From Escherichia coli (GTDB taxonomy: Bacteria > Pseudomonadota > Gammaproteobacteria > Enterobacterales > Enterobacteriaceae), in the NCBI RefSeq assembly GCF_041886205.1, contig NZ_CP169029.1: a DNA stretch of 64,000 nucleotides; one strand, written 5' to 3'. Positions 429-51,031 of this stretch are shown in pieces. The notes beneath the pieces are model-generated. The model searched no databases. It was not told where the DNA came from and saw nothing but the letters and a program-made list of their open reading frames with translations. Numbering within the stretch: the first letter of the stretch is position 1; every line of letters begins with the position of its first letter. The position numbers and the translations under genes were made by a program.

Positions 429-1736
429 CTATCTCTGCCCAAACAGGTTAACGACATTGTTTTCCTGCTGTTGCTGGTGGTTATTCACCCGAGACTCCCA
501 GATCTCGAGAGCCTTACGCTTTTCAACCAGGTAATCGTAACGATCGTAGTGTTTAGAACTCACATCCTGTAGAGCATGGTTCTGAATGCGGTCACGCAGG
601 TCTTTAGCAATACCCGCTTCGCCCATCAGGGTCTTACAGGTACGACGAATATCACGCGCAATAAAAGATGGGCTCAACGCAAAGTGTTGCCGGTAATAAA
701 TGATGGCTTGTGCAAAGCTGTCTGTGCGTAGATGCTGTTCCGGTTTAATACGCTGCGGGAAGATGTAAGGACTCTGACTATGATTCTCAGCTTTCAACTT
801 TTCGAGTATCTCAATGGCTGACTCAGTCAAAGGCACCAGATGATCCCTTTTATTTTTCGACACATCCGCCACTATCAATAACGTTTTTTCTTCCCAGTTA
901 ACGGCATCCCAACGGCTGGAAACCAGTTCATGAGGCCGCTGGCCACCCGTATAGACACACAAGTTAAGCAATTGGCTGATTAACGGGCCGACCTTTGGTG
1001 CTTTAGGGAAATCCCCCATCAGTTGCTGCAACTCATCCAGCTTCAGCCAGTTTGTCCCTGCCTTCTCCGCTGCAGATTGTTTGGGTATGACACTCACTGG
1101 GTTCATTTGAAGCCCAAACATCACGTTCTGCTGGTGGTTTGCCGGATCGTTGTCAGCCTTCAACCCATAATTGAATGCTGCCATCAGATAAGAGCGAACA
1201 CGATTTGCTTCAACTGATGCGCCACGTTTAATAATGGTGGCCAGAATTTGTTTGATATGAGCGGGGATAACGTCACGCGCTTTCGTCGCTTTAGGTATAA
1301 ATGGATAGGTTTCTTTTTCCAGCCGGTACAAAACCTGTTGCCAGGTGCGTTTACCGTCTTCACGCATTTTGGTGGTGTAACCCAAAATGAGTTGCTCAAT
1401 GCTGCCTTTGAGCTGGTCTTCACGTTGTTGTTGTTCGGCAGAGAAAAGCTGCTCTGCGATTTCAGCTTTGGGGTCTTTCCCTTCTTTAAGAAGACCCGCA
1501 TGTTCTTTACATTGCTGTCTTGCCTGCGCGAGTGACAACTCTGGGAAACGGCCAAGCAGAATGAATTGCCGTTTTCCTTGCCAAAAATAACGATAGTAAA
1601 ATACTCGCTGACCCGATGGCTCAACTTTCACCCCTAATCGCCCTGCCCCACGCTCACCACTTTTATCCCATTCATAATAAGCAGTAGTCTTCGGCTTCAA
1701 GCCACTAATCATTGAGACAGTTAAATTATCAGCCAT
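429..1736 (-). CDS. int: Tyrosine recombinase / phage integrase, P4 family (start probably Met at 1736; longest ORF extends to 1838)
   Basis: N-terminal arm-binding-like segment (FYYRYFWQGKRQFILLGRFPELSLAQARQQ) and C-terminal catalytic region ending HYDRYDY with conserved R/H/R/Y pattern. Confidence 0.8.
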   Translation of the reverse strand: MADNLTVSMISGLKPKTTAYYEWDKSGERGAGRLGVKVEPSGQRVFYYRYFWQGKRQFILLGRFPELSLAQARQQCKEHAGLLKEGKDPKAEIAEQLFSAEQQQREDQLKGSIEQLILGYTTKMREDGKRTWQQVLYRLEKETYPFIPKATKARDVIPAHIKQILATIIKRGASVEANRVRSYLMAAFNYGLKADNDPANHQQNVMFGLQMNPVSVIPKQSAAEKAGTNWLKLDELQQLMGDFPKAPKVGPLISQLLNLCVYTGGQRPHELVSSRWDAVNWEEKTLLIVADVSKNKRDHLVPLTESAIEILEKLKAENHSQSPYIFPQRIKPEQHLRTDSFAQAIIYYRQHFALSPSFIARDIRRTCKTLMGEAGIAKDLRDRIQNHALQDVSSKHYDRYDYLVEKRKALEIWESRVNNHQQQQENNVVNLFGQR

Positions 1737-1930
1737 AGTATTTTTCAGTCCTTTGTTCGTTACGTCACCCAGTCTGATTCTGGGTGACGTAGTGGGTGAC
1801 GTAAGGATGATACTGAAGGTAAAAACGCAGAACAACATGAAACAACAACCAGCAAATAACCTACTGTTATTTATTAAATTTAATCTAACGTGAAAAAAGA
1901 TGCAAAATCATGAAACATGGATTTCATATG

Positions 1931-8000: not shown

Positions 8001-9597
8001 GACGCCACGGGATAATGTTACGCCAGTTAAACTCGAAGGGGCGGTCCGGATTACCGATAGCGCGACATTGACTCTGGGAAATGGCGTCGATACCACGCTT
8101 GCCGACCTGACGGCTGCCAGCCGGGGCAGTGTCTGGCTTAACAGCAATAATTCCTGTGCAGGTACCAGCAACTGCGAATATAGAGTAAACAGTTTGCTAC
8201 TCAACGACGGTGATGTTTATTTGTCAGCACAAACAGCAGCGCCTGCCACAACTAACGGTATCTACAATACGCTGACAACCAATGAACTTTCCGGTAGCGG
8301 TAATTTCTACCTGCATACCAACGTTGCAGGCTCCCGGGGCGATCAACTGGTCGTCAACAACAACGCCACTGGTAATTTTAAAATCTTTGTTCAGGATACC
8401 GGCGTCAGCCCACAGTCTGACGACGCGATGACGCTGGTGAAAACAGGGGGAGGGGATGCTTCGTTTACGCTGGGCAATACCGGCGGTTTCGTTGATCTTG
8501 GGACCTATGAGTATGTCCTGAAAAGTGACGGCAACAGCAACTGGAACCTGACCAATGATGTCAAACCCAACCCGGACCCCATCCCAAATCCAAAGCCAGA
8601 CCCAAAACCCGATCCAAAGCCAGACCCAAATCCAAAACCAGACCCTACTCCCGATCCAACGCCGACACCCGTTCCGGAGAAACGCATTACGCCTTCTACG
8701 GCAGCCGTACTCAATATGGCAGCAACATTACCGTTGGTATTTGATGCTGAGCTAAACAGTATTCGCGAGCGGTTGAACATAATGAAAGCGAGTCCACACA
8801 ACAATAATGTCTGGGGGGCGACGTATAACACCCGTAATAATGTCACCACCGATGCGGGTGCCGGGTTTGAGCAGACGCTGACCGGAATGACAGTGGGGAT
8901 CGACAGCCGTAATGATATTCCTGAAGGAATTACCACGCTAGGCGCTTTTATGGGCTATTCCCATTCACATATCGGTTTTGATCGCGGAGGACATGGCAGT
9001 GTGGGCAGTTATTCTCTGGGCGGCTATGCCAGTTGGGAACATGAAAGTGGTTTCTATCTGGACGGTGTCGTGAAGCTGAACCGTTTTAAAAGTAACGTAG
9101 CAGGTAAAATGAGCAGCGGTGGAGCCGCCAATGGCAGTTACCACAGCAACGGGCTGGGCGGTCACATTGAAACCGGGATGCGATTTACCGATGGTAACTG
9201 GAACCTGACGCCGTATGCATCGTTAACGGGGTTCACCGCTGATAACCCCGAATATCATTTATCCAATGGCATGGAATCGAAATCAGTCGATACCCGCAGT
9301 ATATATCGTGAACTGGGTGCAACGCTGAGTTACAACATGCGTCTGGGGAACGGTATGGAAGTTGAGCCGTGGCTGAAGGCGGCTGTGCGCAAAGAATTTG
9401 TCGATGATAACCGGGTGAAGGTGAATAATGACGGTAATTTCGTCAATGATTTGTCGGGCAGACGTGGAATATACCAGGCAGGTATTAAAGCCTCATTCAG
9501 TAGTACGTTAAGCGGGCATCTCGGGGTGGGGTATAGCCATGGTGCCGGTGTGGAATCACCGTGGAACGCGGTGGCTGGTGTGAACTGGTCGTTCTGA
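5008..9597 (+). CDS. ypjA: Large adhesin-like autotransporter (ypjA-like); start assigned to the signal-peptide Met, ORF opens at 4888
   Basis: Signal peptide (MKFMNRTSPYYFRRSVLSLLISALIYAPPGMAA), long passenger of about 19-residue Gly/Thr/Asn-rich repeats, Pro-Asp-Lys linker, C-terminal beta-barrel ending VNWSF. Confidence 0.85.
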   Translation: MKFMNRTSPYYFRRSVLSLLISALIYAPPGMAAFTTNVIGVVNDETVDGNQRVDERGTTNNTHIINHGQQSVYGGVSNGSIIESGGYQDVGRNNNYMGQSNNTTINGGRQTIHDGGISTGTIIDSGNQDVYTGGISNGTTIKGGNSHISGGTANGTIIDGGSQRVTTQGHVDSTTINKSGSQDITQGSLATNTIINGGRQYVEQSTVGTTTIKNGGEQRVYESHALDTTIEGGTQSLNNKSTAKNTQIYSGGTQIVDNTSTSDVIEVYSGGVLDVSGGTATNVTQHDGAILKTNTNGTTVNGTNSEGAFSIHNHVADNVLLENGGHLDINAYGSANKTIIKDKGTMSVLTNAKADATRIDNGGVMDVAGNATNTIINGGTQNINNYGIATGTNINSGTQNIKSGGKADTTIISSGSRQVVEKDGTATGSNISAGGSLIVYTGGIAHGVNQETGSALVANTGAGTDIEGYNKLSHFTITGGEANYVVLENTGELTVVAKTSAKNTTIDTGGKLIVQKEAKTDSTRLNNGGVLEVQDGGEAKHVEQQSGGALIASTTSGTLIEGTNSYGDAFYIRNSEAKNVVLENAGSLTVVTGSRAVDTIINANGKMDVYGKDVGTVLNSAGTQTIYASATSDKANIKGGKQTVYGLATEANIESGEQIVDGGSTEKTHINGGTQIVQNYGKAINTDIVSGLQQIMANGTAEGSIINGGSQVVNEGGLAENSVLNDGGTLDVREKGSATGIQQSSQGALVATTRATRVTGTRADGVAFSIEQGAANNILLANGGVLTVESDTSSDKTQVNMGGREIVKTKATATGTTLTGGEQIVEGVANETTINDGGIQTVSANGEAIKTKINEGGTLTVNDNGKATDIVQNSGAALQTSTANGIEISGTHQYGTFSISGNLATNMLLENGGNLLVLAGTEARDSTVGKGGAMQNLGQDSATKVNSGGQYTLGRSKDEFQALARAEDLQVAGGTAIVYAGTLADASVSGATGSLSLMTPRDNVTPVKLEGAVRITDSATLTLGNGVDTTLADLTAASRGSVWLNSNNSCAGTSNCEYRVNSLLLNDGDVYLSAQTAAPATTNGIYNTLTTNELSGSGNFYLHTNVAGSRGDQLVVNNNATGNFKIFVQDTGVSPQSDDAMTLVKTGGGDASFTLGNTGGFVDLGTYEYVLKSDGNSNWNLTNDVKPNPDPIPNPKPDPKPDPKPDPNPKPDPTPDPTPTPVPEKRITPSTAAVLNMAATLPLVFDAELNSIRERLNIMKASPHNNNVWGATYNTRNNVTTDAGAGFEQTLTGMTVGIDSRNDIPEGITTLGAFMGYSHSHIGFDRGGHGSVGSYSLGGYASWEHESGFYLDGVVKLNRFKSNVAGKMSSGGAANGSYHSNGLGGHIETGMRFTDGNWNLTPYASLTGFTADNPEYHLSNGMESKSVDTRSIYRELGATLSYNMRLGNGMEVEPWLKAAVRKEFVDDNRVKVNNDGNFVNDLSGRRGIYQAGIKASFSSTLSGHLGVGYSHGAGVESPWNAVAGVNWSF

Positions 9598-9630: not shown

Positions 9631-9760
9631 CATGTTACCAGGAGCCGCGGCTCTTTTGCGTATCCTGTTTTGTCTCCTCACCGTCTGGTCGGTGTCCTGC
9701 TGAGGCTGCTAACTTCCTGTTTTTGTTGGTGTTGTCCTTACACCGTCCAATCATGATTGG

Positions 9761-9771
9761 GCTGGCGGAGT
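9761..9771. other. Putative distal att core (imperfect repeat of ssrA 3' end)
   Basis: GCTGGCGGAGT resembles GCTGGCGGGAGT at the tmRNA 3' end (window 21340-21351); short and imperfect. Confidence 0.3.
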
Positions 9772-9825
9772 CTGAATAACATTTGCAACATAATGTTTTT
9801 ATTGTTTATTTTCCAATTCAACTTT

Positions 9826-9853
9826 CATTGGTATACCTAAGCGTATACCAATG
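9826..9853. repeat. Inverted repeat CATTGGTATAC-ctaagc-GTATACCAATG; candidate integrase arm-type site
   Basis: Perfect 11-bp arms; near-identical motif recurs at 21199-21223 at the opposite end of the element. Confidence 0.5.
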
Positions 9854-9937
9854 GCGATTTGTTGCAATGATTCCTGTGGTTAAGCGAACTTGTTGTTGAA
9901 TAGCTCACATCAAGAAAAAAACTTTTTTTACGGAAAA

Positions 9938-10030
9938 CTGTTCACACTGTTCACTCGCCATTATTTGTCTTTAATTTCAATGTGATATACGGTGAATAGT
10001 CCGTGAACAGTGAACACTTTACTGTTCACT
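9938..10030. repeat. Cluster of TGTTCAC iterons (P4 ori-like, alpha-binding type)
   Basis: At least five copies of TGTTCAC/GTGAACA in both orientations just downstream of the alpha gene. Confidence 0.6.
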
Positions 10031-10040
10031 TTCCGGGATT

Positions 10041-10070
10041 TCAGGTAAAAAAAGACCGGCTGATGCCGGT
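10041..10070 (-). terminator. Rho-independent terminator downstream of alpha
   Basis: On minus strand GACCGGCATCAGCCGGTC hairpin followed by TTTTTTT. Confidence 0.55.
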
Positions 10071-10079
10071 CCGGGTAGG

Positions 10080-12413
10080 TTATGTCGCGGTGGTTTCGTC
10101 GCACCGGGGCAGCCAGTCGGCGTTGCTTTCCTCCCTGAGCGCAAGGTTCGTCTGCATCCCCTGATTTGTTCGCCGCCTGGCGTAATTCAGCCCGTACTCT
10201 TTCAGCATCGATGACAGCCCTTTGCCGAACATGGTCAGGCTGAGGGTGTTCTTGTAGCCGTGCGCCTCCATGTAAACCAGATAGGCGTGATACAGGTACA
10301 GGCGCGGCTGTCGCGGGATGATATTCGCATTCCCCATGTACATACCGTCAGGCTCGGGCAGCGCCTCCAGATAGCCACAAAAATCGAATGTCGGGTCAGC
10401 GTCGCGCTTGATGCTGAGTGCCTCGTCGGAGTTCTGCTGCGACTGGAGCAGTGTGCGCGCGGTCATCGGGTCGCTGAACGTCTGCATAAGCTGACGCACG
10501 ATGACGGCCAGCTCGCGGGCAATTTTATCTTTCAGCTTCGGGTCACGCTCCTCCGGGGCAATCTGTTCCGGGAAGTGCATTATCACCCGGCGACGCGACA
10601 CGCCGCCGCTGCGGTCGGTGAAGCGCATCGGATTGTTGTTTACGGCCAGTATCACCGCCGGAATATGGGTGGAGTACGCATCGCGGTATTTCGGGTCAAC
10701 CGAGACCGCATCCCCGCCGGTGATGGCCTTGAGTCCTGCCCCGTCACCGCTCCATTTCTCCTGGTCAGGCAGACGTATCAGCGAGAAGCCAATCAGCGCC
10801 GCGCGCTCGCGGGGGGATTCCAGCGTTTCGATAGTCGCTGACGTGGCGTTATCTTCCCCGGCGAGCATGGTCGCTATTTCGGCCAGAATACTTTTCCCGC
10901 TGCCACCGGGACCGGTCACTTCGAGGAAGAGCTGCCAGTCGTAGCGGTTCGCCAGCACCATAAACAGCGCGGCGAGTATCACGTCACGTTTATCGGCACG
11001 CGAACCGGCGGCGCGGTCGAGCCAGCGCCAGAAATTCGGCGCGTGCGTCTCCAGCGTTTCCCCCTCCACCGGCGGGGTGAAATCCACGTCGCACAGGGTG
11101 CGCAGCCAGTGCGTTTTGCTGTGCGGGCTGAATATACCGGTACTGGTATCAAGCACGCCGTTGCGAAAGCCAATCAGCCGCCGTGGCGGGGCATCCTGCT
11201 GCGGAATAATCAGTTTCAGGGTGTCCACCACCGAGGCAATTTTCCCCGACGAAAACGGGGCGCGCAGACGCTGGAACAGCCCGGCCACGTCGCGCGCAAA
11301 GTCTGACGGCGGAATGATTTTCCATATACCGGCTTCATAGCGGGACAGGAGCTGCCCGTTCGCATCCACCGCCAGCGCTTCGCCGTAATGCTCATGCACC
11401 CGCATGGCTTTCTCACTGGTGCTCATGGCGGTAAATTCCGCCTCGCTCATGGTAGAGAAAGGGCTTTCAGCCGGTGGCCGGATGGCGTCATACATGGCTT
11501 TACGCGTGGCCTCCCCACCGTGCTGTGTATACGCATCATTCCAGTCACCGAACACCGGCGGCAGGGCGACCACGCCCTCACAGGACTCTGCGGCCGCAGA
11601 CGCTTTGGTCTGGCCGTCGCCGTTAAGGTCACGGTCGGCGGCAATGACAATCCGGCAGGCCGGGTATTTGTGACGGGCAAGGCTCGCCAGAGAAAGGAGG
11701 TTCACCGACGACAGCGCCACCATGACGGTTTCGCCGGTCAGGTGATGCACGGTGAGCGCGGTCGCGTAGCCCTCCGCTATCCACAGCCGTTTTCCCGCCT
11801 CTTTTTTCCCGTCGAGAATATGACATGTCCCTTTTACCTGCCCCCCTTTCAGGGTGCGCTTGAGACCGTCCGCGTTAATGAGCTGGACGTTAACCAGTGC
11901 GCCGCTATCGTCATACAGCGGGACAACCACATCCCCGGCACGGTACGTCACACCGCCGGTTTTGTGCATGGCCGTCAGTACCTGACATTCCCGGCCGGGA
12001 AAGCCCTTGCGGGTGAGGTAGGCGTTGCCGGTGGCCGGTTGGGTTTTCTCCATCAGTCTGGCGGCCAGCGCGGCCGCCGCTTTGCGGTCGGCCTCCGTTT
12101 CAGCGTCTGCGGCCGCAGTCACCGCCGGGGATACCGGAGGCAGGTTGCCGGTCACGGCGTTCACCTTCCCGGCCGCCTCTGACGGGGTCACGCCGAACAC
12201 TTTCTCAACCAGTTTCAGACCGTCCCCCGCGCCGCACTGGTTACAGAACCACGTCCCGCGTCCCTCCTTATCGTCAAAGCGAAAGCGGTCGGAGCCGCCA
12301 CACACCGGACAGGCCTGATGACGGTTTTTGATGACCGTTACCCCCAGCGCCGGGAGAATGCGCGGCCAGTGGCCGCACGCCTGTTTCACGGTGTCCGTTA
12401 CGTTCATTTTCAT
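10080..12413 (-). CDS. P4 alpha-like primase-helicase (777 aa)
   Basis: N-terminal zinc-binding cysteine pairs (CPVCGG ... CNQCG), central primase region, Walker A (GPGGSGKS) helicase domain; size identical to P4 alpha. Confidence 0.9.
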   Translation of the reverse strand: MKMNVTDTVKQACGHWPRILPALGVTVIKNRHQACPVCGGSDRFRFDDKEGRGTWFCNQCGAGDGLKLVEKVFGVTPSEAAGKVNAVTGNLPPVSPAVTAAADAETEADRKAAAALAARLMEKTQPATGNAYLTRKGFPGRECQVLTAMHKTGGVTYRAGDVVVPLYDDSGALVNVQLINADGLKRTLKGGQVKGTCHILDGKKEAGKRLWIAEGYATALTVHHLTGETVMVALSSVNLLSLASLARHKYPACRIVIAADRDLNGDGQTKASAAAESCEGVVALPPVFGDWNDAYTQHGGEATRKAMYDAIRPPAESPFSTMSEAEFTAMSTSEKAMRVHEHYGEALAVDANGQLLSRYEAGIWKIIPPSDFARDVAGLFQRLRAPFSSGKIASVVDTLKLIIPQQDAPPRRLIGFRNGVLDTSTGIFSPHSKTHWLRTLCDVDFTPPVEGETLETHAPNFWRWLDRAAGSRADKRDVILAALFMVLANRYDWQLFLEVTGPGGSGKSILAEIATMLAGEDNATSATIETLESPRERAALIGFSLIRLPDQEKWSGDGAGLKAITGGDAVSVDPKYRDAYSTHIPAVILAVNNNPMRFTDRSGGVSRRRVIMHFPEQIAPEERDPKLKDKIARELAVIVRQLMQTFSDPMTARTLLQSQQNSDEALSIKRDADPTFDFCGYLEALPEPDGMYMGNANIIPRQPRLYLYHAYLVYMEAHGYKNTLSLTMFGKGLSSMLKEYGLNYARRRTNQGMQTNLALREESNADWLPRCDETTAT

Positions 12414-12424
12414 GGTGTTCTCCC

Positions 12425-12745
12425 TCAGTGCAGCGCCGGTGCGGTGATATGACGGGCGCAGAGTTCATCCATCACGGCCAGCCCGAGAAAGGACAGCGAC
12501 GGCGCGGCCTTGAGTGGTCCGGCTTCCATTAAATCTTCGAGCAGGGCACAGGCAATCTGACGGCCTTTTTCCTCGCCATGCTGGCGCAGGTAGAAGCCCT
12601 CCAGCTCGGTCGCAATGGCGCTTTCCAGCGTACTGAGCGTGAGCTGCGGGTAGCGGTGCTGACGTTCGCACAGGGTCAGCCATGCACAGGCCACGGCGCG
12701 GCGATAGAGCGCGGCGCGTAAGACGGGCGTTAATGGCTTTTTCAT
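12425..12745 (-). CDS. Hypothetical protein (106 aa), satellite left operon
   Basis: ORF abutting the alpha start in the same operon. Confidence 0.45.
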
Positions 12746-13002
12746 ACGTTGCGCTCCCCGGCCAGCCAGCGCTGATTGCAGCGTTCGACCACACCTTCAA
12801 GCCGGGCGGTCATGAGGTAAATCACCGAGGTGAGCTGTAGCTGCTGCGCCGGATTGTGGCGCAAAGAGGTGCAGTCCTGCACCTGCATCAGTTCGCCGAC
12901 GAGCTGGCCGACGTTGCGAAGATGTTCGAGGCATTCGAGGTCTGCCCGGCTGATGGTGGGCTGGTTTATATTCTGCGACCGTTCCGTACTGTTAACAGGC
13001 AT
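12742..13002 (-). CDS. Hypothetical protein (about 86 aa; start at Met with AGGAG upstream)
   Basis: ORF with Shine-Dalgarno-like AGGAG before ATG at 13002; 4-nt overlap with downstream gene. Confidence 0.4.
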
Positions 13003-13073
13003 TATTTCGTCTCCTGAGGACGTGCGTATCCCTGCGCAGATACGCACATTTTATTTTGGGGTGTCGTTTTTAA

Positions 13074-13523
13074 TTACAGATAACGGCGGTAGCTGTTATC
13101 CGGTTTTATTTCCGTTTCCAGCCTGAAATTATTCCGCCATTTATGCGCCACCGGCGCCGGGCGTTTAACCGGGGGAATATCATCAGGATAGTTATCGATA
13201 TTCCGCGCCCGGTATTGCTGTAATGCCGGGTCGGCCGCTATTTCGCGTAATACGGCGTGGCGGTTTTCAGGGTTGCGCTTAAATACATCGGGATGCTCAC
13301 AGGTAAAGTCCCGCAAAAAACGACTGAGCGGAATTTCTGCCATACGGCCACCGGCAATAATACGAATGAGGATGGTGTAGGTGCGCCGGTAAGGGTTCCA
13401 GACCAGCCCCGGACAGCGGTACGGCATATCCCACGGAATACCGTCGGCCAGCACGCCCGACACCACCACATCAGGAAATCCTGTACAGCGATATGTTTCG
13501 CCCGGCTGAGGGAAATCAAACAT
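13074..13523 (-). CDS. P4 orf151-like protein (149 aa)
   Basis: Position and size match P4 orf151 upstream of alpha; GGAGG before ATG. Confidence 0.5.
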   Translation of the reverse strand: MFDFPQPGETYRCTGFPDVVVSGVLADGIPWDMPYRCPGLVWNPYRRTYTILIRIIAGGRMAEIPLSRFLRDFTCEHPDVFKRNPENRHAVLREIAADPALQQYRARNIDNYPDDIPPVKRPAPVAHKWRNNFRLETEIKPDNSYRRYL

Positions 13524-13815
13524 GGTGCTCCCCTCCGTTTCCCGACGTCGTGGCGAGAAAGTCACGGCACAGGCCTTTGGCTTTCAGCTCTTCCAGGACG
13601 TAGCTGACGTCCTCATGGATATAACTAAAAATCTGCGGCAGGTATAGCTGGTGTAAACCGTTCAGCTCACGGCGCAGCAAATCTCCACCGATGAACTGCG
13701 AGACGGCGCTGGCGCGATTGAGTTTATGGTACGCCTCAATGCTGAGGTGTTCCTGCATGGGGTTAAGGTCATCACGACGCGCTGAGATGGTCTGAGGGGT
13801 GTTTTTATTATGCAT
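13516..13815 (-). CDS. Small protein (99 aa), position of P4 epsilon
   Basis: In-frame Met inside a longer ORF; overlaps neighbours by 8 nt; position equivalent to epsilon. Confidence 0.45.
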
Positions 13816-14005
13816 GTGACACCTCCACAACCGGCAGACGGGCGGCAAGGGAAAGCACGTATTCCCGGACAAGGGTGCGGCGGGCGGCCAGCTCGTCACC
13901 GGCCACGGTGCGGAGCATACAGATACGGGGTTTACGGTCTGCACGACGGACGGCGGCAAACACAAAGACAAACTGAGGGTGTGACGGGGTGAGGGTCGTA
14001 GCCAT
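13808..14005 (-). CDS. Small protein (65 aa), position of P4 kil/eta
   Basis: AGGAGG 7 nt upstream of ATG at 14005; overlaps downstream gene start. Confidence 0.35.
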
Positions 14006-14403
14006 AAGGCAACCTCCTTCGAGTAGCAAATTATTGCTATCGCCGGAGTTCTCACGCTCAGTGGCGATAGCCCAGACGGGGGTGAGAATACCGGCCTCGA
14101 AGAATACCGGCCAGCCCGAGGGCTGCCCCGCCTGAGCTACCATTGACATGACAGCATGATATGCGATTGCGGACAGGAGACACAAAGTGACGTCTGCACG
14201 ACGATCCGCACACCACGCCATTATCTGGCGCTCTGTGGCGTTAGTTGCGACACAAAAAAAGACGCATGGCGCGTCTGGTGTCGCCTTCGAGTTACTCGGG
14301 TTCTCACGCCCGGTTACCGATTTTGCGGCAACAGCAAAACTGTACCAGGAAACACACAACGGATGCAAGCCAGAAAAAGGGGCTTTGTGAAATCGGCTCT
14401 GAT

Positions 14404-14670
14404 TCATGCGTCGTATTTCCGGTTGCGGTGCGCGACACGTTCTTCCATCCATGCCGTGATTTCAGACTGTAGCCAGGCGACATTTTTACCCCCGAGGGAA
14501 ACCTGCGCCGGGAAAGCGTTACGGGCGATTAAATCGTAGAGCGTGGAGCGGGACAGGCCGCACTGATGAATGACTTCCGGGAGACGTAAAAAACGTTCCT
14601 GAGTCGGGGCTGAAACCGGCATCGGGTGCGCGGCAGTGGGGGACGGTGGTGCTGATGAAACTGTGTGCAT
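14404..14670 (-). CDS. Vis/AlpA-family transcriptional regulator (start may be internal Met at 14622)
   Basis: [28 protein letters not shown] is an AlpA-type HTH; 88 aa as for P4 Vis; divergent from sid. Confidence 0.7.
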
Positions 14671-14944
14671 AACGCTACCTCGTTAATATCCGCAGAGATC
14701 CGGACGTATCCGTCCGGTATCAGGTAGCGCTCTATTTTGTGAATATTTTTCTTCAATGCAACAGAGGCATGTTGTGTCGTGGAGCAGTTTTGTCTGTTAT
14801 TTAAGCAGCGACCTGAAAATATGAAAAATAATTGGCACATGACGCGCTGAGACGTTCATAAATCACAGTCAATTGATATCGCCTATCAATAGATAAAAAT
14901 ATAATTATTAAAACAATGACTCTCTAAAAGGAGCTTGCCGAAAC

Positions 14945-15050
14945 CAGTGAACAGTAGTGAACAGTTGGTGAACACTTTTCTCTCAACTGTTCACTCTTTA
15001 ATTTATTGTTTTATTTATATTTTTATACTGAGTGAACAGTAGTGAATAGT
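14945..15050. repeat. Second TGTTCAC iteron cluster in the divergent vis/sid control region (crr-like)
   Basis: Six copies of GTGAACA/TGTTCAC in an AT-rich intergenic region about 5 kb from the first cluster. Confidence 0.5.
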
Positions 15051-15218
15051 TATATGTAAAAAAACAAATAGAGTGAGGGGTTTTCCTGCGACCTTTCTCT
15101 GGCCAGCCGGGTTTTTAAGTCCTGTTTGTGCCATGTCTGCGACAACGGCAATGAATCGAGTTGTTGTCTGAGGGACGGCAGAATGGCGTCAGGTTGAAAA
15201 CACAGAGAGAACCCGACG

Positions 15219-16022
15219 ATGAAACCAGATTTGTTTACCGCAGTAATGAAAACCATCGGCAGCACGCAGGATGAGAACATCCGCACGGCCATTGACAGCG
15301 CACTGGATACCCTTAACGAGAAAGCAAACCAGAACGCAGAGGCCACGATAAATAATGCGCTTGAGGCATTCAGCAAGGCCAAATCCGCGCACACGGAAAA
15401 TATGCTGAAACTGAATGATATTGATGCGGCCATTACCCGCAGTGAGAAAGAGCGTCAGAACGCCCTGAATGAAAGTGCCGAAGCGGAACAGAACTGGCGT
15501 ACCCGTTTTCGCGAACTGCGCGGCATGATGACCCCGGAACTGAAAGCCGAACACAGTCAGCGAGTGGCCGGTCGGGAGCTGGCGGAGGAATTCACCGCCC
15601 TGATTGATGAGCTCAACGATGATAAAGCCAGTACCATGCTGGCCGCCTGTACATCAGGAGATAAGTACGTCGGCACGCATTTTACGGTGTTCTCTGCCTA
15701 CTCCCGGAATGAGTGGGCGACCGTGATGAAAGACATCCCTCCCTCACTGGTGCGCGCATTTGCGTTACGTCTGCGTGAACTCGAAATGAAAGGAGAAGAA
15801 CACCCTCACAACGTTCTCATTCAGGAACTGGGGGAGAATGTACTGGCGCAAAGCAGGTACTACACATTCAACATGGCGCAGGAGCCGGTAATTTCAAAAA
15901 TTGGGCTTCACCGTCCGGCACTCACCGGCGTGGATATGAAACTCTATAAAAGCCCGGTTCTCAGAATGGCGCGGGCTAAAGAGCTGGCACAGAAGAAAAA
16001 ATCGCGGGGGGTTAAGCCATGA
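15219..16022 (+). CDS. sid: Sid-like capsid size-determination (external scaffold) protein
   Basis: Similarity to P4 Sid (NWRTRFRELRGMMTPELKAEHSQRVAGRELAEEF); first gene of sid-delta-psu. Confidence 0.75.
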   Translation: MKPDLFTAVMKTIGSTQDENIRTAIDSALDTLNEKANQNAEATINNALEAFSKAKSAHTENMLKLNDIDAAITRSEKERQNALNESAEAEQNWRTRFRELRGMMTPELKAEHSQRVAGRELAEEFTALIDELNDDKASTMLAACTSGDKYVGTHFTVFSAYSRNEWATVMKDIPPSLVRAFALRLRELEMKGEEHPHNVLIQELGENVLAQSRYYTFNMAQEPVISKIGLHRPALTGVDMKLYKSPVLRMARAKELAQKKKSRGVKP

Positions 16023-16261
16023 TGCGCTGTCCGTACTGCAAACAGGCTGCCCATGTCCGTACCAGCCGTTACCTGTCGGATAACGTCAAACAGAGCTACC
16101 TCCAGTGCGTGAATGTCTTTTGCTCCGCAACCTTTCGCACCACCGAGTCTATCGACGAGGTAATACGGCCACCGGCAGAAGAAAAGCCCGAACCGCCGCA
16201 GACAGTACCAGAAACACCGCCCCGAATTCTGGACTGCGCCCGGTCATCGCTGCGCCACTGA
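16019..16261 (+). CDS. Delta/Ogr-type zinc-finger late transcription activator
   Basis: MMRCPYCKQAAHVRTSRYLSDNVKQSYLQCVNVFCSATF with C-x2-C ... C-x4-C pattern typical of P2 Ogr/P4 Delta; 4-nt overlap with sid. Confidence 0.85.
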   Translation: MMRCPYCKQAAHVRTSRYLSDNVKQSYLQCVNVFCSATFRTTESIDEVIRPPAEEKPEPPQTVPETPPRILDCARSSLRH

Positions 16262-16277
16262 TTCAGGAGAAAAGACA

Positions 16278-16853
16278 ATGGCACGAGCACTACTGGAACA
16301 GGCCTTTGAAACCTGTCAGAAGAATAAATCGGACTGGGTGAGCAGCAAGTCAGCACTGGCGCGGGCTGAAATGGCGCTGAAAGAGCTGGAGCTGACCTGC
16401 ACCCGTTATGAACCGGAGGCCGCACAGGCGCTGCGGGATGATATTGACCTGAAAAAATGGGCGGTAAATCAGTCGGCCGGGCAGTACATCCGGTCACATG
16501 AGGCCGTGCAGCGTATCAGTATCCGGCGTCAGCTCCACGCCTTTATGCAGGTAAGCGGCGACGCGCTGGCCGCCGCACTGGCACCGGAATTAATGCATCT
16601 CTGCGAACAACCTGACATTGTCAGAGAACGGGCTCTCGACCGGGCGGCCGCCAGTGTTCGCGAAGCGCTGTCCGTTTATGTAACCCGCGGAGGAAATATT
16701 GATTACGCAGAGGATGATCGCGACATTCTGACAACCATCGGTTTCCGGCCTGACAGAGCATCGAGAGACGACAACCGGGCAAAATATACGCCTGAACAGA
16801 GTCAGATTTTCATGCGCCGACAGGCCGCGCAGACCCGCAAAAAATCCGCATAA
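16278..16853 (+). CDS. psu: Psu-like polarity suppression / capsid decoration protein
   Basis: KWAVNQSAGQYIRSHEAVQRISIRRQL and ALAAALAPEL and DILTTIGFRPD match P4 Psu; 191 aa. Confidence 0.85.
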   Translation: MARALLEQAFETCQKNKSDWVSSKSALARAEMALKELELTCTRYEPEAAQALRDDIDLKKWAVNQSAGQYIRSHEAVQRISIRRQLHAFMQVSGDALAAALAPELMHLCEQPDIVRERALDRAAASVREALSVYVTRGGNIDYAEDDRDILTTIGFRPDRASRDDNRAKYTPEQSQIFMRRQAAQTRKKSA

Positions 16854-17017
16854 AACGCCCCGAAAATACCCGTCTTTTTAATAAAAATAGCCATGCATGC
16901 CTACGCTGCATGGCTTTGCATGCAAAAACCTGAATTTTCCACACCCCGCCGCACCAGCACTGGCGCGGCCTGAGTCCCTTCATGCGCCTGCATTAAAAGT
17001 GCCCCACGAAGCGGGCA

Positions 17018-17036
17018 GGCGTGGCGGGGAGAGCAT
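17018..17036. other. cos-like cohesive-end site
   Basis: GGCGTGGCGGGGAGAGCAT matches 16 of 19 positions of the P2/P4 cohesive end as I recall it; lies after psu as in integrated P4. Confidence 0.45.
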
Positions 17037-17113
17037 TGCGCGCCAAGCGATATATAATTAATTAATGAAGAAGGATAGAATTAACCATATAGCCATAAAA
17101 AAGGATGCGGGTG

Positions 17114-18685
17114 ATGAAGGCGAGTGATATGCAGCACTTATGTAATATAGCCAGAGAGCTTGTTTCTGATGGCAAGTTTGAAAAGGCGTATGAGTTCACG
17201 TTGCAGATTTATAAATCCCTTGACGAAAATATCTTTGGGGATAATTACTATATACTTCTTTATAATATGGCTGCGAATTTTGTTGATATAGGAGGAATGC
17301 AACCGAATAAAGAGGCTTCTCTGCTAGGCTATAACTTAATGAATGAGCACTTTGACTCTTTTTCTAAAATTATGGATGAATCTACGCTCTATTATAACCT
17401 AGCAAACGCAAAGTCAAACTTGGTTGAAAAAGGCAGTGTTTTTAAACAAACGTTTACAACAATTGAGGATATGGTGGATGTAAAAAATTTATACTGGAAG
17501 GCATTTAAATTACTCGGTGATGATAATACTATATATAGCAAAGAACTGAAGGTCAATTTAGCAAACTCACTCAAGCAACAGTTTAGAGTTGTAGAGTCTA
17601 TTTCATATTATGATGATGTTATTTCCTCGGGGGAAGATATACCGCAAGCATGGATTAACAGGTCTGAAGCCTTAATGCTATTGCTGCAACTCTCTGGTTC
17701 TCATACTATAAAGCATATAAGAGAGATTAGACTTGGATATATGAAAGCAATTGAATCAACAGAGATGCCACCGCCATGGAAACCACACTTTCAATCACGT
17801 GCTGAAAAACTCACGGAAGATATAATCGAAATGTCGGGAAAACCATTTTTTGAAAAAGAAGATGAGCTTGATGAAAAACAGACGCTAGAAGAATATAGCA
17901 AACTTAATAATTATCAAAAATTCGTTTTAGATAACCACTTTGTTCTTTCTGAGCATGGGGTGTATTGTCCTTGCGTAGTTGGGGCTAAAGATAACCTAAC
18001 AATATTACCAACACATAATGATGTTTCTGGTGATTTTATTATTCCCATGGAAATGGTTTTGAATAGGCTAAAGTCTGAATATGCTTTGGCAAGGCGCTCG
18101 TTATTCGAGTATGAGTACATGGAGGAAGTTGATGATGTGGCCTGTTATTCAGAGTTGTATAACGATGAAGTTTTAAATGTTGGTGTTGAGAAGATAAGAA
18201 ATGCATTTCGTATATGTTTTGGTGTGTTAGATAAAATAGCTATTGCAATATGTGAGTTATACGATGTTTATCCAGCCAATAAAATAGTGTACTTTGAAAA
18301 TTTTTGGCAATTAAACCAAAATGGGCGAAGGGATAAGTTTGAAGAAATAAAAACTCCAGCTTTACTGGCTTTATATAGTCTAGCTACTGACCTAAATGAT
18401 AGAAAGAATGGTGAATTATCCTTTTATAAGGATTGGAGAAATGATTTGGAACATAATATAGTGATCGTTCATAAAGATTGCGAGCCTTTAGATATATATA
18501 ATTCCTACGGTTACATGAAGAATATTAGGTTGATATCGGAGTCTGATTTTACTAGACATTTTAAAGTGTTATTGCAAATAGTACGCTCAGCAATTTTTCT
18601 TTTTACCTTTATGGTAAGAGAAGAGGGGGGTAAAAGTAACAAGGATTCATTTTTGATATCAAACTCACTAGATTGGAAAATATGA
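17114..18685 (+). CDS. Cargo protein A (523 aa): TPR-like N-terminal half, C-terminal Rx4H HEPN-like motif; function unknown, candidate defence protein
   Basis: AT-rich ORF with AAGGA 8 nt before ATG at 17114 (ORF opens at 17105); helical repeat-like N-terminus; motif WRNDLEHN near C-terminus; lies in the cos/psu-int variable slot. Confidence 0.7.
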   Translation: MKASDMQHLCNIARELVSDGKFEKAYEFTLQIYKSLDENIFGDNYYILLYNMAANFVDIGGMQPNKEASLLGYNLMNEHFDSFSKIMDESTLYYNLANAKSNLVEKGSVFKQTFTTIEDMVDVKNLYWKAFKLLGDDNTIYSKELKVNLANSLKQQFRVVESISYYDDVISSGEDIPQAWINRSEALMLLLQLSGSHTIKHIREIRLGYMKAIESTEMPPPWKPHFQSRAEKLTEDIIEMSGKPFFEKEDELDEKQTLEEYSKLNNYQKFVLDNHFVLSEHGVYCPCVVGAKDNLTILPTHNDVSGDFIIPMEMVLNRLKSEYALARRSLFEYEYMEEVDDVACYSELYNDEVLNVGVEKIRNAFRICFGVLDKIAIAICELYDVYPANKIVYFENFWQLNQNGRRDKFEEIKTPALLALYSLATDLNDRKNGELSFYKDWRNDLEHNIVIVHKDCEPLDIYNSYGYMKNIRLISESDFTRHFKVLLQIVRSAIFLFTFMVREEGGKSNKDSFLISNSLDWKI

Positions 18686-18814
18686 AAACATTACGTTGCA
18701 AGTATATCTTGTATTCGTTCAACTTTGACCTGACACACCTCTGGCACAAAGCCCCAATCTCATAGGCGGTTCTATGCCAGGGGCTGAAAGTCTGTCTCTG
18801 GTAACATACACTTA

Positions 18815-19801
18815 TTATGTTATATTGAGGAAATCTGGGATATTAGCTGGTTCAAGGTCAAAAATATATTTAATGATTCCGGCTTTTAGGTTCTCCTCAA
18901 TTCCTTTCCTGAAATCTAGAATACTTGAGATTGTTGCATCATGTTGTAAATGATGTCGCCAGTGAACATCTTTTTCTCGACTATGAAAAGATAACAATCG
19001 GGTTAGAGCCATATGTGCGAACATTCCTGATTGTTCATCGATTGTATAATGGGCAACCACGTGGGAATCAGAATATGATTCTTTCGTAGAAAGATCCCAA
19101 GAATGAAATAATTGCTGAGCAATTGGTGATAGATCCCTTATTTGTTCATTTCTTCCGTTAGTGAAGTAAACATCATCTATGACGGTATGCCAGTTTTCTT
19201 GTGTCCCTTCATCTGTTTCAATGGTTTCAATAATATTTTCTTTCTTGAAACTTATATGAACACCTGAATTAACTTGTGGAGTGTAGGTGAAGTCACCTAA
19301 AACTTTACTCATTAAGCTATTACGCATTGCATCATTGAAATTAAGATTGAAATTTGTTTTTGCCTTTGTAAATAAATCTAGATCTACCAGGCTCCAAATT
19401 CCATGTCTTCTCCAGGCAATTAAAACGGGCAGCCCTAATAATTGGCCGTAAGCTCTTAATCTGGACACGTAATCTGGACGAAAAGACAAAACATTTCCCA
19501 TGTAAGATTTAACTTCAATCAAAACAGTAGTCTTGCCTGCGCCACGCACATTAAAATTTGCTAGTAAATCTGGAACCTGAAAAGTCTTGTTAGAAGTAGT
19601 TGGATACTGCTGTTGATCCAATTTATGGACTAGGTTGCATTGACCTAGCCAACCACAGATAATCGAAAACTCGTCTTCTAACGGGAGGCCAATATTAAGT
19701 CTATTTACACGTTCAGCGATAGCCTTAGCGTCAGCCTCCCAACCCAGTTGCTCTAGAGATTCATGTATAAGTCTCTCTAAATCTGTCGGCTTATCTTTCA
19801 A
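18815..19801 (-). CDS. Cargo protein B (328 aa): putative PD-(D/E)xK-fold nuclease; function unknown, candidate defence protein
   Basis: AT-rich ORF; VPDLL ... 16 residues ... VLIEVKS fits the PD-(D/E)xK spacing; convergent with protein A. Confidence 0.7.
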   Translation of the reverse strand: MKDKPTDLERLIHESLEQLGWEADAKAIAERVNRLNIGLPLEDEFSIICGWLGQCNLVHKLDQQQYPTTSNKTFQVPDLLANFNVRGAGKTTVLIEVKSYMGNVLSFRPDYVSRLRAYGQLLGLPVLIAWRRHGIWSLVDLDLFTKAKTNFNLNFNDAMRNSLMSKVLGDFTYTPQVNSGVHISFKKENIIETIETDEGTQENWHTVIDDVYFTNGRNEQIRDLSPIAQQLFHSWDLSTKESYSDSHVVAHYTIDEQSGMFAHMALTRLLSFHSREKDVHWRHHLQHDATISSILDFRKGIEENLKAGIIKYIFDLEPANIPDFLNIT

Positions 19802-19960
19802 GGTAGCTCCCTATAGGTTTAGTTCGAACTCAATAAGTTATATGTCATTAACATATTACAAAGTTATGCCATTATCGCTTAAAGCCGATCATCATGTAAG
19901 AATACATTATATCCGTGGCAACGGTTAGTGCTAATTCACAGATATACTGAGCAAAAATTT

Positions 19961-21148
19961 TTAATGATTTACTTTATCTCCCCACCAATCCATCAACTCA
20001 ACTCTTTGAAGTAAATAAGTTGAACGGTTGTAAGCTTTTCGAACTTCATTTTTGTCTGAGTGTGCTAATGCTGCTTCAATAACATCAGAATTAAATCCGG
20101 CTTCATTGAGTGCAGTACTTGCGATGGACCGTAACCCGTGAGCAACTAATTTCCCACCATAACCAATACGCTTAAGTGCGGCATTAGCAGTCTGACTATT
20201 CATTGGTTGCTTAGGGTTATTTCTGCTGGGAAAAACATGTTCACGGTGAGCGCTGATTGGTTTCATCACTTCCAGAATATCTAACGCCTGAGGAGATAGT
20301 GGGACTATGTGCTCACGCTTAGCTTTCATCCGTTCGGCAGGAATTGTCCAGAGCTTTGCATCAAGATCGATCTCTGCCCACCGGGTACTGGAAGCCTCAG
20401 AAGGGCGCACAAGGGTCAGGAGTTGCCATTCGATTAGACAGCGAGTCGGAACAGACAGATTTGACATGACTAAAGAACGCATCAGCTTCGGCAATTCTTC
20501 TGGCCGCAACGTCGGCATGTTTTGCTTTTTGGGCTTCTCAAAGGCCATGCCAACACCGGATGCTGGATTGGCATCAATCAGACCAGTGTTTACGGCATAA
20601 ATCATGATTTCGTTAATGCGCTGCACCAGTCGACGTACAGTCTCAAGCGCCCCACGTGCTTTTATTGGCTCAAGGGCTTCAACCAAAGTTCGGGCTTTGA
20701 TTTGCTGAACGGGGATCTCACCGATGGCAGGGAATACATCTTTCTCCAGTGAACGCCAAATGTCTTTTGCGTAATCAGGGGTAACGCTTTTGCTTTTGAG
20801 ATGGAACCAGTTAGCGGCGACCGTTGAAAAAATACTGTCCAGAGCGATTTGCTGCTGTTCCTCTGCAACTTCGGCCTGAATTTGCGGGTCAATTCCGTTG
20901 GCTAACAAGGCAAGGTAATCCGCTCTTAACCCTCGGGCGTCAGCAAGTGAGAGGGCGGGGAAAGCACCTAGCCCCATCATTGTCCGCTGTTTTGTCGCCG
21001 GACGTTGATAACGGAAACGCCAGAGCTTTTTCCCGCTGGTTTTCACTATCAGGAAAAGGCCATCGCCATCATGCAGCGTTAGATCCTTCTCTAACGCTTT
21101 AGCGCGCAGAACTTCGGTGTTGGTCAGGGGGCGTGTTGTCCGTGCCAC
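19961..21148 (-). CDS. int: P4-family integrase (IntA-like) next to ssrA
   Basis: 395 aa; N-terminal LWRFRYQRPATKQRTMMGLGAFPALSLADAR arm-binding-like domain; catalytic C-terminal domain; immediately downstream of tmRNA 3' end. Confidence 0.9.
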   Translation of the reverse strand: MARTTRPLTNTEVLRAKALEKDLTLHDGDGLFLIVKTSGKKLWRFRYQRPATKQRTMMGLGAFPALSLADARGLRADYLALLANGIDPQIQAEVAEEQQQIALDSIFSTVAANWFHLKSKSVTPDYAKDIWRSLEKDVFPAIGEIPVQQIKARTLVEALEPIKARGALETVRRLVQRINEIMIYAVNTGLIDANPASGVGMAFEKPKKQNMPTLRPEELPKLMRSLVMSNLSVPTRCLIEWQLLTLVRPSEASSTRWAEIDLDAKLWTIPAERMKAKREHIVPLSPQALDILEVMKPISAHREHVFPSRNNPKQPMNSQTANAALKRIGYGGKLVAHGLRSIASTALNEAGFNSDVIEAALAHSDKNEVRKAYNRSTYLLQRVELMDWWGDKVNH

Positions 21149-21167
21149 TGTGGCCGCTCCTTCATGA

Positions 21168-21232
21168 ATTGGTATACGCTTTTAGGTATACATCCTACCG
21201 TATACCTAAACGTATACCAATAATCACCGGAT
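21168..21232. repeat. Cluster of GGTATAC motifs incl. CGTATACCTAAACGTATACCAAT; candidate integrase arm sites between int and ssrA
   Basis: Three or more GTATACC/GGTATAC copies; 23-nt block nearly identical to 9832-9852. Confidence 0.45.
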
Positions 21233-21332
21233 TTAGCCGGATGTTCTCGGACAACTACAGACACAAAAAAGCCCGCAGAGCTTGTGCTATACGGGCTTTC
21301 TGTACTTCACCGGACGTATCCGGATCATCATT

Positions 21333-21695
21333 TGGTGGAGCTGGCGGGAGTTGAACCCGCGTCCGAAATTCCTACGTCCTCGGTACTACATGCTTAGTCA
21401 GTCTTTACATTCGCTTGCCAGCTGCGGACGGACACGCCACTAACAAACTAGCCTGATTAAGTTTTAACGCTTCAACCCCAGGCAGGGCTTCCACGCGATC
21501 TCTTTTGGGTTTGACCTCTCTTGATCCCCGTCCTAAGAGCGGAGGCTAGGGAGAGAGGGCTCTAAGCAGGTTATTAAGCTGCTAAAGCGTAGTTTTCGTC
21601 GTTTGCGACTATTTTTTGCGGCTTTTTACGAGGCCAACCGCCCCTCGGCATGCACCTTGGGTTTCGCAAATCCCGTCGAATCCAGAATCAGCCCC
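21333..21695 (-). ncRNA. ssrA: tmRNA (SsrA), 363 nt
   Basis: Reverse complement begins GGGGCTGATTCTGGATTCGACGGGATTTGCGAAACC and ends GGTTCAACTCCCGCCAGCTCCACCA; ANDENYALAA tag template region present. Confidence 0.95.
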
Positions 21696-46018: not shown

Positions 46019-47561
<1,543 letters not shown>

Positions 47562-47645
47562 CTTAAAGAAGCGTACTTTGCAGTGCTCACACAGATTGTC
47601 TGATAGAAAGTGAAAAGCAAGGCGTCTTGCGAAGCAGACTGATAC

Positions 47646-47721
47646 GTCCCCTTCGTCTAGAGGCCCAGGACACCGCCCTTTCACGGCGGTAACAGGGGTT
47701 CGAATCCCCTAGGGGACGCCA
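47646..47721 (+). tRNA. gltW: tRNA-Glu(UUC) in 16S-23S spacer
   Basis: GTCCCCTTCGTCTAGAGGCCCAGGACACCGCCCTTTCACGGCGGTAACAGGGGTTCGAATCCCCTAGGGGACGCCA. Confidence 0.95.
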
Positions 47722-47914
47722 CTTGCTGGTTTGTGAGTGAAAGTCACCTGCCTTAATATCTCAAAACTCATCTTCGGGTGATGTTTGAGATATTTGCTCT
47801 TTAAAAATCTGGATCAAGCTGAAAATTGAAACACTGAACAACGAAAGTTGTTCGTGAGTCTCTCAAATTTTCGCAACACGATGATGAATCGCAAGAAACA
47901 TCTTCGGGTTGTGA

Positions 47915-50818
<2,904 letters not shown>

Positions 50819-50911
50819 ACAACGCCGAAGATGTTTTGGCGGATTGAGAGAAGATTTTCAGCCTGATACAGATTAAATCAGAACGCAGAAGCGGTCTGAT
50901 AAAACAGAATT

Positions 50912-51031
50912 TGCCTGGCGGCCTTAGCGCGGTGGTCCCACCTGACCCCATGCCGAACTCAGAAGTGAAACGCCGTAGCGCCGATGGTAGTGTGGGGTCT
51001 CCCCATGCGAGAGTAGGGAACTGCCAGGCAT
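50912..51031 (+). rRNA. rrfG: 5S ribosomal RNA
   Basis: TGCCTGGCGGCCTTAGCGCGGTGGTCCCACCTGACCCCATGCCGAACTCAG ... GGAACTGCCAGGCAT; 120 nt. Confidence 0.95.

Follow-up and report, generated by a model that had tools for sequence, protein, structure and literature searches.

A probably intact P4-like phage satellite with candidate defense cargo at the 3' end of ssrA in Escherichia coli

The stretch of Escherichia coli chromosome analyzed here (64,000 nucleotides of contig NZ_CP169029.1, assembly GCF_041886205.1; hereafter, the 64-kb window) carries an insert of about 11.6 kb between ypjA and ssrA, the gene for tmRNA. Its genes and sites, described below, indicate that the insert, at positions 9761-21332, is very probably an intact Type-A P4-like phage satellite, placed in the 3' end of ssrA by a tyrosine integrase of the P4 subfamily. 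P4-like satellites are abundant and are defined by seven components (bioRxiv 10.1101/2021.03.30.437493); Type A denotes an element in which all seven hallmark components of this definition (Moura de Sousa and Rocha) are present. The psu-int locus of these satellites is a defense hotspot bounded by cos (PMC9122126), and two genes that we consider candidates for defense functions lie there in the present element.

The boundaries of the insert were read against an empty site. In E. coli LHM10-1, ypjA is followed directly by ssrA, both flanks are 99.9% identical to those of the window, and the junction reads ...CCAATCATGAT|TGGTGGAGCTGGCGGGAG... The window is identical to this sequence up to 9760 and again from 21332. 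Because LHM10-1 offers an empty site with flanks this similar, both ends of the insert, 9761 and 21332, are fixed to the base. Its GC content is 57-64% at 10.0-13.0 kb and falls to 33-38% at 17.0-20.0 kb, a swing as expected of a mosaic insert. On the other side of the insert lies the target gene, which stays intact while the element is integrated:

21333-21695, minus strand: ssrA (tmRNA), found with ARAGORN and by Rfam RF00023 at 292.8 bits

The ypjA-side flank is common to the window and to K-12 up to the same point, where K-12 has a remnant of the ssrA 3' end named 'psaA'. A first-pass annotation of the window had placed a satellite at 9761-21332, downstream of tmRNA, directly against the ypjA side and without the CP4-57 prophage content that K-12 carries at this site. 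All of this stands: ssrA lies where it was expected, the empty-site comparison gives the same coordinates to the base and confirms the contact with the ypjA side, and blastn against K-12 gives no match beyond the flank, ssrA and part of int (68% identity).

The order of the features is that of P4: int, cargo, cos, psu-delta-sid, ori, vis, CI RNA, epsilon, orf151, orf106, alpha, crr and att. The following genes were matched by tblastn of the proteins of P4 (NC_001609) against the window, or by family models and relatives as given with each (identities are of amino acids, aa):

10080-12413, minus strand: alpha primase-helicase, 777 aa; 84% to P4 alpha over 775/777 aa, 97% to the satellite of strain L1_E925 (L009) over 777 aa; TIGR01613 match
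12425-12745, minus strand: orf106/cnr homolog (DUF5375); 89% to P4 orf106; phrog_5991 at 1e-53
13074-13565, minus strand: orf151 homolog; 64% to P4 orf151; phrog_10748 at 5e-73
13516-13815, minus strand: epsilon, helper derepression protein; 67% to P4 epsilon, full length; phrog_10016 at 7e-47
within 13808-14452: cI-region open reading frame (ORF); 75% to P4 (tblastn)
14404-14670, minus strand: vis/alpA, excisionase and regulator, 88 aa; 64% to P4 Vis over 88 aa
15219-16022, plus strand: sid, capsid size-determination scaffold of a divergent type, 267 aa; 28% to P4 Sid (E 1e-20), 97% to the satellite of strain BKQWHE (L008)
16019-16261, plus strand: delta, late-gene activator with a single Ogr/Delta zinc-finger domain, 80 aa; NF007241 at 2.9e-22; 100% to the BKQWHE satellite
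16278-16853, plus strand: psu, polarity suppression and capsid decoration, 191 aa; 50.5% to P4 Psu over 190 aa (E 8e-49), 99% to the BKQWHE satellite
19961-21148, minus strand: tyrosine integrase of the ssrA-specific P4 subfamily, 395 aa; NF007246 at 589.8 bits (cut-off 434) over residues 1-394

The seven hallmark genes, int, psu, delta, sid, vis/alpA, epsilon and alpha, are all full length and in P4 order, and the coordinates, set against the P4 annotation, put cos between psu and int. The large genes align end to end with those of close relatives at 93-100% aa identity, with no truncation or frameshift. The Zn ribbon, the TOPRIM motifs and the Walker A motif GPGGSGKS are readable in the translation of alpha, and the R, K, HxxR and Y motifs in that of the integrase. 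The first-pass annotation had proposed a P4 map complete gene for gene and large genes free of frameshifts; alignment to P4 and to the relatives supports both points, with alpha, int and sid undisrupted and a similarity to P4 that reaches beyond the integrase. The TGTTCAC iterons (short repeats) that it reported after alpha are also present, five of them at 9939-10029 in an iteron scan, and its cos-like site proved to be a P2-type cos at 17018-17036.

At the DNA level the stretch from crr to vis is 75-81% identical to P4 (about 79% by megablast), and the P2-type cos is a further likeness. The integrase is only 36% identical to P4 Int, compared with 62% to IntA of K-12 and 95% to a metagenomic relative (L002), and its target is ssrA. 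P4 integrates at leuX. Despite its low identity to P4 Sid, the sid product belongs to the P4 sid family (phrog_6165 at 2.5e-60, covering 3-235 of 242 positions). Delta is an 80-aa single-domain protein, 42% and 37% identical to the two halves of the 166-aa double-domain delta of P4; the short form is common to the closest satellites (the metagenomic relative and those of BKQWHE and L1_E925), and the satellite of strain wlxctx60 has the long P4 form. The cargo of P4 consists of gop, beta and cII, in place of the two genes found here. There is also an extra small ORF (12742-13047, minus strand) between orf106/cnr and orf151, in a stretch of about 250 bp without P4 counterpart (alignment gap 12745-12997); relatives have different small ORFs at this position. 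The vis/alpA homolog of the metagenomic relative is 70% identical to the one described here and carries the PF05930 Phage_AlpA domain.

These data bear on whether the element could be a decayed, cryptic remnant like CP4-57 that resembles P4 superficially. It does sit where CP4-57 sits, in the ssrA 3' end beside ypjA, and its integrase is related to IntA. However, none of the CP4-57 genes (alpA, yfjI, abpAB, rnlAB ... ypjF) is shared in the blastn comparison with K-12, and a full P4 replication, late-gene and packaging module is present, with seven full-length hallmark genes, cos, ori, crr and CI RNA. We regard a decayed remnant as extremely improbable and, on this evidence, already refuted.

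The control, replication and packaging sites were located by alignment with P4, Rfam models and repeat scans:

9939-10029, no strand: crr (cis replication region), a single unit whose five TGTTCAC type-1 iterons run + + - - +; alignable with the crr repeats of P4
14060-14147, minus strand: CI immunity RNA (C4 antisense RNA family); Rfam RF01695, 74.4 bits against a gathering threshold of 45
14255-14345, minus strand: leader region with sequences like CI-RNA targets (isrK and c4-a1b1 matches); Rfam RF01394, 68.1 bits (gathering 50)
14947-15038, no strand: ori, five type-1 iterons (GTGAACA three times, TGTTCAC, GTGAACA) between vis and sid; aligns with P4 ori 9311-9413
15127-15144, plus strand: Psid operator for delta/Ogr upstream of sid, the TGT-N12-ACA dyad TGTGCCATGTCTGCGACA; aligns with the P4 dyad at 9493
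17018-17036, plus strand: cos cohesive-end sequence GGCGTGGCGGGGAGAGCAT; 16/19 positions match the P4 cohesive end in an alignment with the joined P4 ends

The DNA around the CI RNA is 75% identical to the cI region of P4. In the leader, a match to RF03163 scored 43.6 bits, slightly under its gathering threshold of 46.7. The TGT-N12-ACA pattern is not enriched in the window (19 matches, 15.7 expected), and because the pattern alone is not significant, the operator call rests on its alignment with the P4 dyad. Around cos, about 200 bp are alignable (approximately 16857-17065), and blastn matches this region to the genome ends of many P2-like phages.

The sites at which the element joins the chromosome are as follows:

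9758-9779, no strand: attR, a degenerate copy of the ssrA 3' end, TGG----GCTGGCGG-AGTCTGAATAA, defined by comparison with the empty site and with the attR of K-12, BKQWHE, wlxctx60 and the metagenomic relative
9780-9938, no strand: attP arm on the alpha side; k-mer analysis of the reconstructed attP shows two GGTATAC-type repeats, inverted to each other, at about 9826-9852
21149-21332, no strand: int-side attP arm, with four GGTATAC-type repeats
21333-21356, minus strand: attL core, the ssrA 3' end TGGTGGAGCTGGCGGGAGTTGAAC

The GGTATAC-type repeats on both arms are plausible arm-type binding sites for a protein, Int. No exact direct repeat of at least 10 bp of the ssrA 3' end was found near the far end of the element, and the att repeat is inexact; the boundary was settled by the empty-site genome together with the att alignment of several elements. 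In lying in the 3' end of ssrA next to an imperfect copy of it, the element resembles the ssrA islands of the CP4-57 type. In these, attR is an imperfect copy with a small deletion and excision mutates ssrA, according to the passages of PMC10107115 that cite Kirby 1994 and Williams 2003. Here attL and attR share only the 8-bp identity GCTGGCGG (attR 9761-9768, attL 21340-21347), and the sense strand of attR, CGCCAGC----CCA, has a 4-nt scar relative to ssrA.

The two parts of attR behave differently among elements. Its right part, AGTCTGAATA, is also found in CP4-57 of K-12, two other E. coli satellites and the metagenomic relative, and because of this recurrence it is assigned to the attP of the elements. 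In its left part a small deletion differs in length: 1 nt is missing in K-12 and the metagenomic relative, 4 nt in wlxctx60 as in the present element, and 5 nt in BKQWHE. The CGCCAGC----CCA lesion is listed for another ssrA island in Table 1 of PMC10107115, a table in which CP4-57 is attributed to Wang 2009 and most of the other ssrA islands to Williams 2003. Lesions of this kind are reported to inactivate tmRNA, as happens when CP4-57 excises and passes its 1-nt deletion (deltaT357) on to ssrA (PMC10107115). A crossover in the terminal TGGTGG (CCACCA) was rejected because of this reported movement of the attR lesion into ssrA, and for the same reason the crossover is placed in or 5' of CCGCCAGC. 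When the ends are joined in silico at GCTGGCGG, ssrA acquires the 3' end CGCCAGC----CCA, and a circle of 11,579 bp is released, close to the 11,624 bp of P4; the predicted junctions are ...ATCATCATTTGGTGGAGCTGGCGGAGTCTGAATAACATTTGC... for attP and ...CATGATTGGGCTGGCGGGAGTTGAACC... for attB. By analogy with CP4-57 and other ssrA islands, excision would leave ssrA without U357 and a proper CCA acceptor end, and because of the 4-nt scar the host would pay a price for losing the element.

What is established for P4 suggests how the satellite would behave. In the lysogen, CI RNA would hold the left operon silent. Upon infection by, or induction of, a P2-like helper, Cox and Ogr of the helper and Epsilon and Delta of the satellite would cross-activate. 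Int together with Vis would then excise the 11,579-bp circle by crossing over within GCTGGCGG, the 8 bp that attL and attR have in common; Alpha would replicate this circle from ori and crr, Sid would redirect the capsid protein of the helper into small heads, and the helper terminase would package the satellite from cos. The satellite may thus be inducible and packageable, a reading consistent with its sequence because cos, ori and crr, the Psid operator and CI RNA are in place, each arm has repeats of the Int arm type, and the predicted circle is close to P4 in size.

Comparison with other strains pointed to turnover at this site. Three strains with 99.9-100% identical flanks differ in what lies there: the satellite described here, a different one in wlxctx60, and an empty, unscarred site in LHM10-1. 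The wlxctx60 element is also P4-like; its cargo is SIR2, its delta and sid are 166 and 244 aa long, and its attR shows the same 4-nt scar. This near-isogenic trio indicates recent satellite turnover, possibly by Int-mediated replacement. Since the lesion is on the chromosome side of the crossover, the scar would survive such a replacement, which fits the finding in wlxctx60 of near-identical flanks and the same scar beside a different satellite.

The scar could also be taken to mean that the element, although structurally intact, is locked in: a domesticated island without productive exit, serving mainly as a fixed carrier of defense genes and kept in place by its scarred attR and by the reliance of the host on it for an intact ssrA 3' end. 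The position of the 4-nt deletion next to the 8-bp crossover identity would fit this, as would the persistence of the same scar beside another satellite in wlxctx60, the defective ssrA predicted by the in-silico join and by the CP4-57 precedent (PMC10107115), and the lack of a helper within the window, where tblastn with six P2-like prophage proteins found none. Yet CP4-57, with its 1-nt attR lesion, still excises on AlpA overproduction (PMC10107115); the mobility genes and sites are all intact here, with no decay seen; and strains whose flanks are 99.9-100% identical hold one satellite, another one, or none, which shows recent turnover. We consider a locked-in island possible but doubtful, and favor an intact satellite that may still be mobile.

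Closest relatives differ from one part of the element to the next. The core from crr to cos (9902-17043) is 95% identical to the L1_E925 satellite, which lies at tRNA-Sec (selC); this similarity stops at 17043, slightly beyond cos. The sid, delta and psu products are 97-100% identical to those of the ssrA satellite of BKQWHE, whose cargo is SIR2 plus an ATPase. For int (95% aa) and the cargo (90% aa), the closest match is the metagenomic P4-like element. Judged from these comparisons, the satellite is a mosaic of a crr-to-cos core shared with a satellite at selC and an ssrA-type int/att module. An integrase of the same type (at least 80% nucleotide identity) is present in 379 of 5,426 complete E. 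coli genomes, and in several genomes the ypjA-ssrA site holds a P4-like satellite with other cargo, such as SIR2, a retron, a restriction enzyme, PARIS-like genes or NACHT.

The first-pass annotation had noted variable cargo between psu and int, and this cargo indeed consists of two unrelated single-gene modules past cos:

17105-18685, plus strand: cargo 1, a 526-aa TPR-HEPN protein (LA2681 family) and predicted RNase; translation may begin at the Met codon at 17114, as in homologs
18815-19801, minus strand: cargo 2, 328 aa, which has an Hjc-like PD-(D/E)xK nuclease domain at its N terminus, followed by a C-terminal domain of unknown fold

Cargo 1 has the features of the LA2681 family of the HEPN superfamily, namely a C-terminal PF18733 domain with the conserved Rx4-6H motif (here Rx4H) fused to N-terminal TPR repeats, as described for this family (PMC3710099). 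In cargo 2, the conserved D...(D/E)xK motif lies on a restriction-endonuclease-like fold, the Hjc-like fold of the PD-(D/E)xK nucleases. It scored 20.3 bits against the archaeal Hjc equivalog NF040854, for which the cut-off is 70, and relative to archaeal Hjc it has an extra C-terminal domain of about 180 aa. Both proteins retain the invariant catalytic motifs.

The satellite resembles other E. coli P4-like satellites with a psu-int hotspot (PMC9122126; Moura de Sousa and Rocha 2021) in its seven core components and in having variable cargo right after cos, but differs in the cargo pair itself. Neither protein matched any system model of PADLOC-DB 2.0 (E <= 0.01) or any NCBIfam or PHROGs family above cut-off, the weak Hjc match aside. 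Profile searches of the PDB returned generic TPR and Hjc domains only and no solved structure for either family, and literature searches found no experimental report on either one and no experimentally characterized LA2681 member. An identity of cargo 1 with the 'HEPN-TPR' gene tested by Rousset et al. was considered and rejected, as the sequences are unrelated. By megablast, the cargo DNA has no match in the 5,426 complete E. coli genomes; the only other copies of the pair that were found are in two related public metagenome or read-assembly contigs, at 90% aa identity.

We also considered that the two genes form one system. This was rejected: in a genome-wide scan across many phyla, the nuclease occurred within 10 kb of the HEPN gene in none of 25 HEPN loci, and finding the nuclease alone in a plasmid is a second point against a two-gene system. 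In this plasmid contig, from Kosakonia cowanii (L004), an 84%-identical nuclease homolog (10001-10990) stands alone in the leading region, where the other genes include ParM/StbA partition genes, an orphan methyltransferase, and anti-restriction, psiB and psiA genes. A diverged LA2681 gene, 66% identical, is present in 25 of the 5,426 complete E. coli genomes. In the one examined, ECONIH5, the TPR-HEPN gene (L043, 6136-7677) lies in the cos-adjacent hotspot of a P2-like prophage, between neighbors that are a dinI-like gene and the portal gene Q. The family is thus present in the hotspots of both helper and satellite, and its occurrence in the P4 hotspot here and in the P2 hotspot elsewhere is circumstantial evidence of a role in defense. 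Other LA2681 homologs stand beside integrases in islands or within a Tn7-like element, and the family spans many bacterial phyla. A motif search of the supplements of two recent defense papers gave one LA2681 entry, in that of DefensePredictor, where the family member is a 'Predicted novel defense gene', a computational call that is not validated.

Taken together, the domains, motifs and genomic positions suggest that the cargo most likely represents anti-phage defense genes expressed by the satellite in the lysogen. We infer that the two genes are independent, single-gene defense candidates, and judge it somewhat more probable than the converse that one or both are new single-gene anti-phage defense systems carried by satellites and helpers. 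A TPR sensor joined to a HEPN RNase is a typical abortive-infection design: in cargo 1, the TPR part would sense a phage protein and the RNase domain would shut down translation. Cargo 2 would act as an Hjc-like PD-(D/E)xK DNase guided by its C-terminal domain.

Alternatively, the cargo genes may have nothing to do with phage defense and could instead be selfish modules of the toxin or addiction kind, or could process DNA on behalf of the mobile element; the Hjc-like nuclease, for example, could be a recombination or establishment factor, as the plasmid leading-region position of its homolog beside anti-restriction and psiB genes might suggest. The lack of matches to PADLOC, NCBIfam or PHROG defense families and of experimental reports on either family would fit such functions. 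They are nevertheless unlikely in our view, given that the psu-int locus of P4-like satellites is an established defense hotspot (PMC9122126), that 6 of 8 randomly chosen loci of unknown function were protective in a 2026 preprint (10.64898/2026.02.27.708500), that an LA2681 homolog also occupies the P2 defense hotspot, and that both proteins keep their invariant catalytic motifs. We therefore retain defense as the preferred function of the cargo.

Several observations weigh against the interpretation of the element as an intact satellite with defense cargo. It has one crr unit compared with two in P4. Sid is only 28% identical to its P4 counterpart and delta is half the length, both variants that sequence comparison finds to be common to many other satellites. 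The 4-nt attR deletion adjoins the presumed overlap region and could weaken Int binding. The search for a helper, which covered the 64-kb window, found no P2-like structural or replication genes, and the cargo is without match to any validated defense system model. Finally, excision, replication, packaging and defense are all things that we infer.

The remainder of the window is core chromosome plus an rRNA operon. To the right of ssrA, core genes run from smpB to clpB, no prophage genes were found, and the complete rRNA operon (16S, tRNA-Glu, 23S and 5S) lies at 46019-51029. To the left of the satellite, a second island ends at 429-1976. It includes a 469-aa integrase-like ORF (429-1838, minus strand) with 20% identity to P4 Int, which adjoins the tRNA-Ile fragment of this island. 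That fragment, a 47-nt 3' portion of tRNA-Ile (anticodon CAU), lies at 1930-1976, where ARAGORN finds no whole tRNA; from its position in K-12, we take it to be ileY. In related strains, homology to the window starts within an intact tRNA-Ile.

Satellites of the P4 type that occupy ssrA and vary in their psu-int cargo are well known from earlier work, and the element described here is an ordinary, intact member of this family, to which it adds one more intact satellite and one more modular exchange at cos. In the trio of near-isogenic strains, nature offers a clear case of recent satellite turnover at a single attachment site. Given the 4-nt attR scar, tmRNA is predicted to be inactivated in cells cured of the satellite, which matters to anyone deleting or mobilizing the element. 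Its psu-int locus offers two compact, widely conserved candidate defense genes; of these, the LA2681 TPR-HEPN gene also occupies the defense hotspot of P2-like helpers, as well as islands in many phyla.

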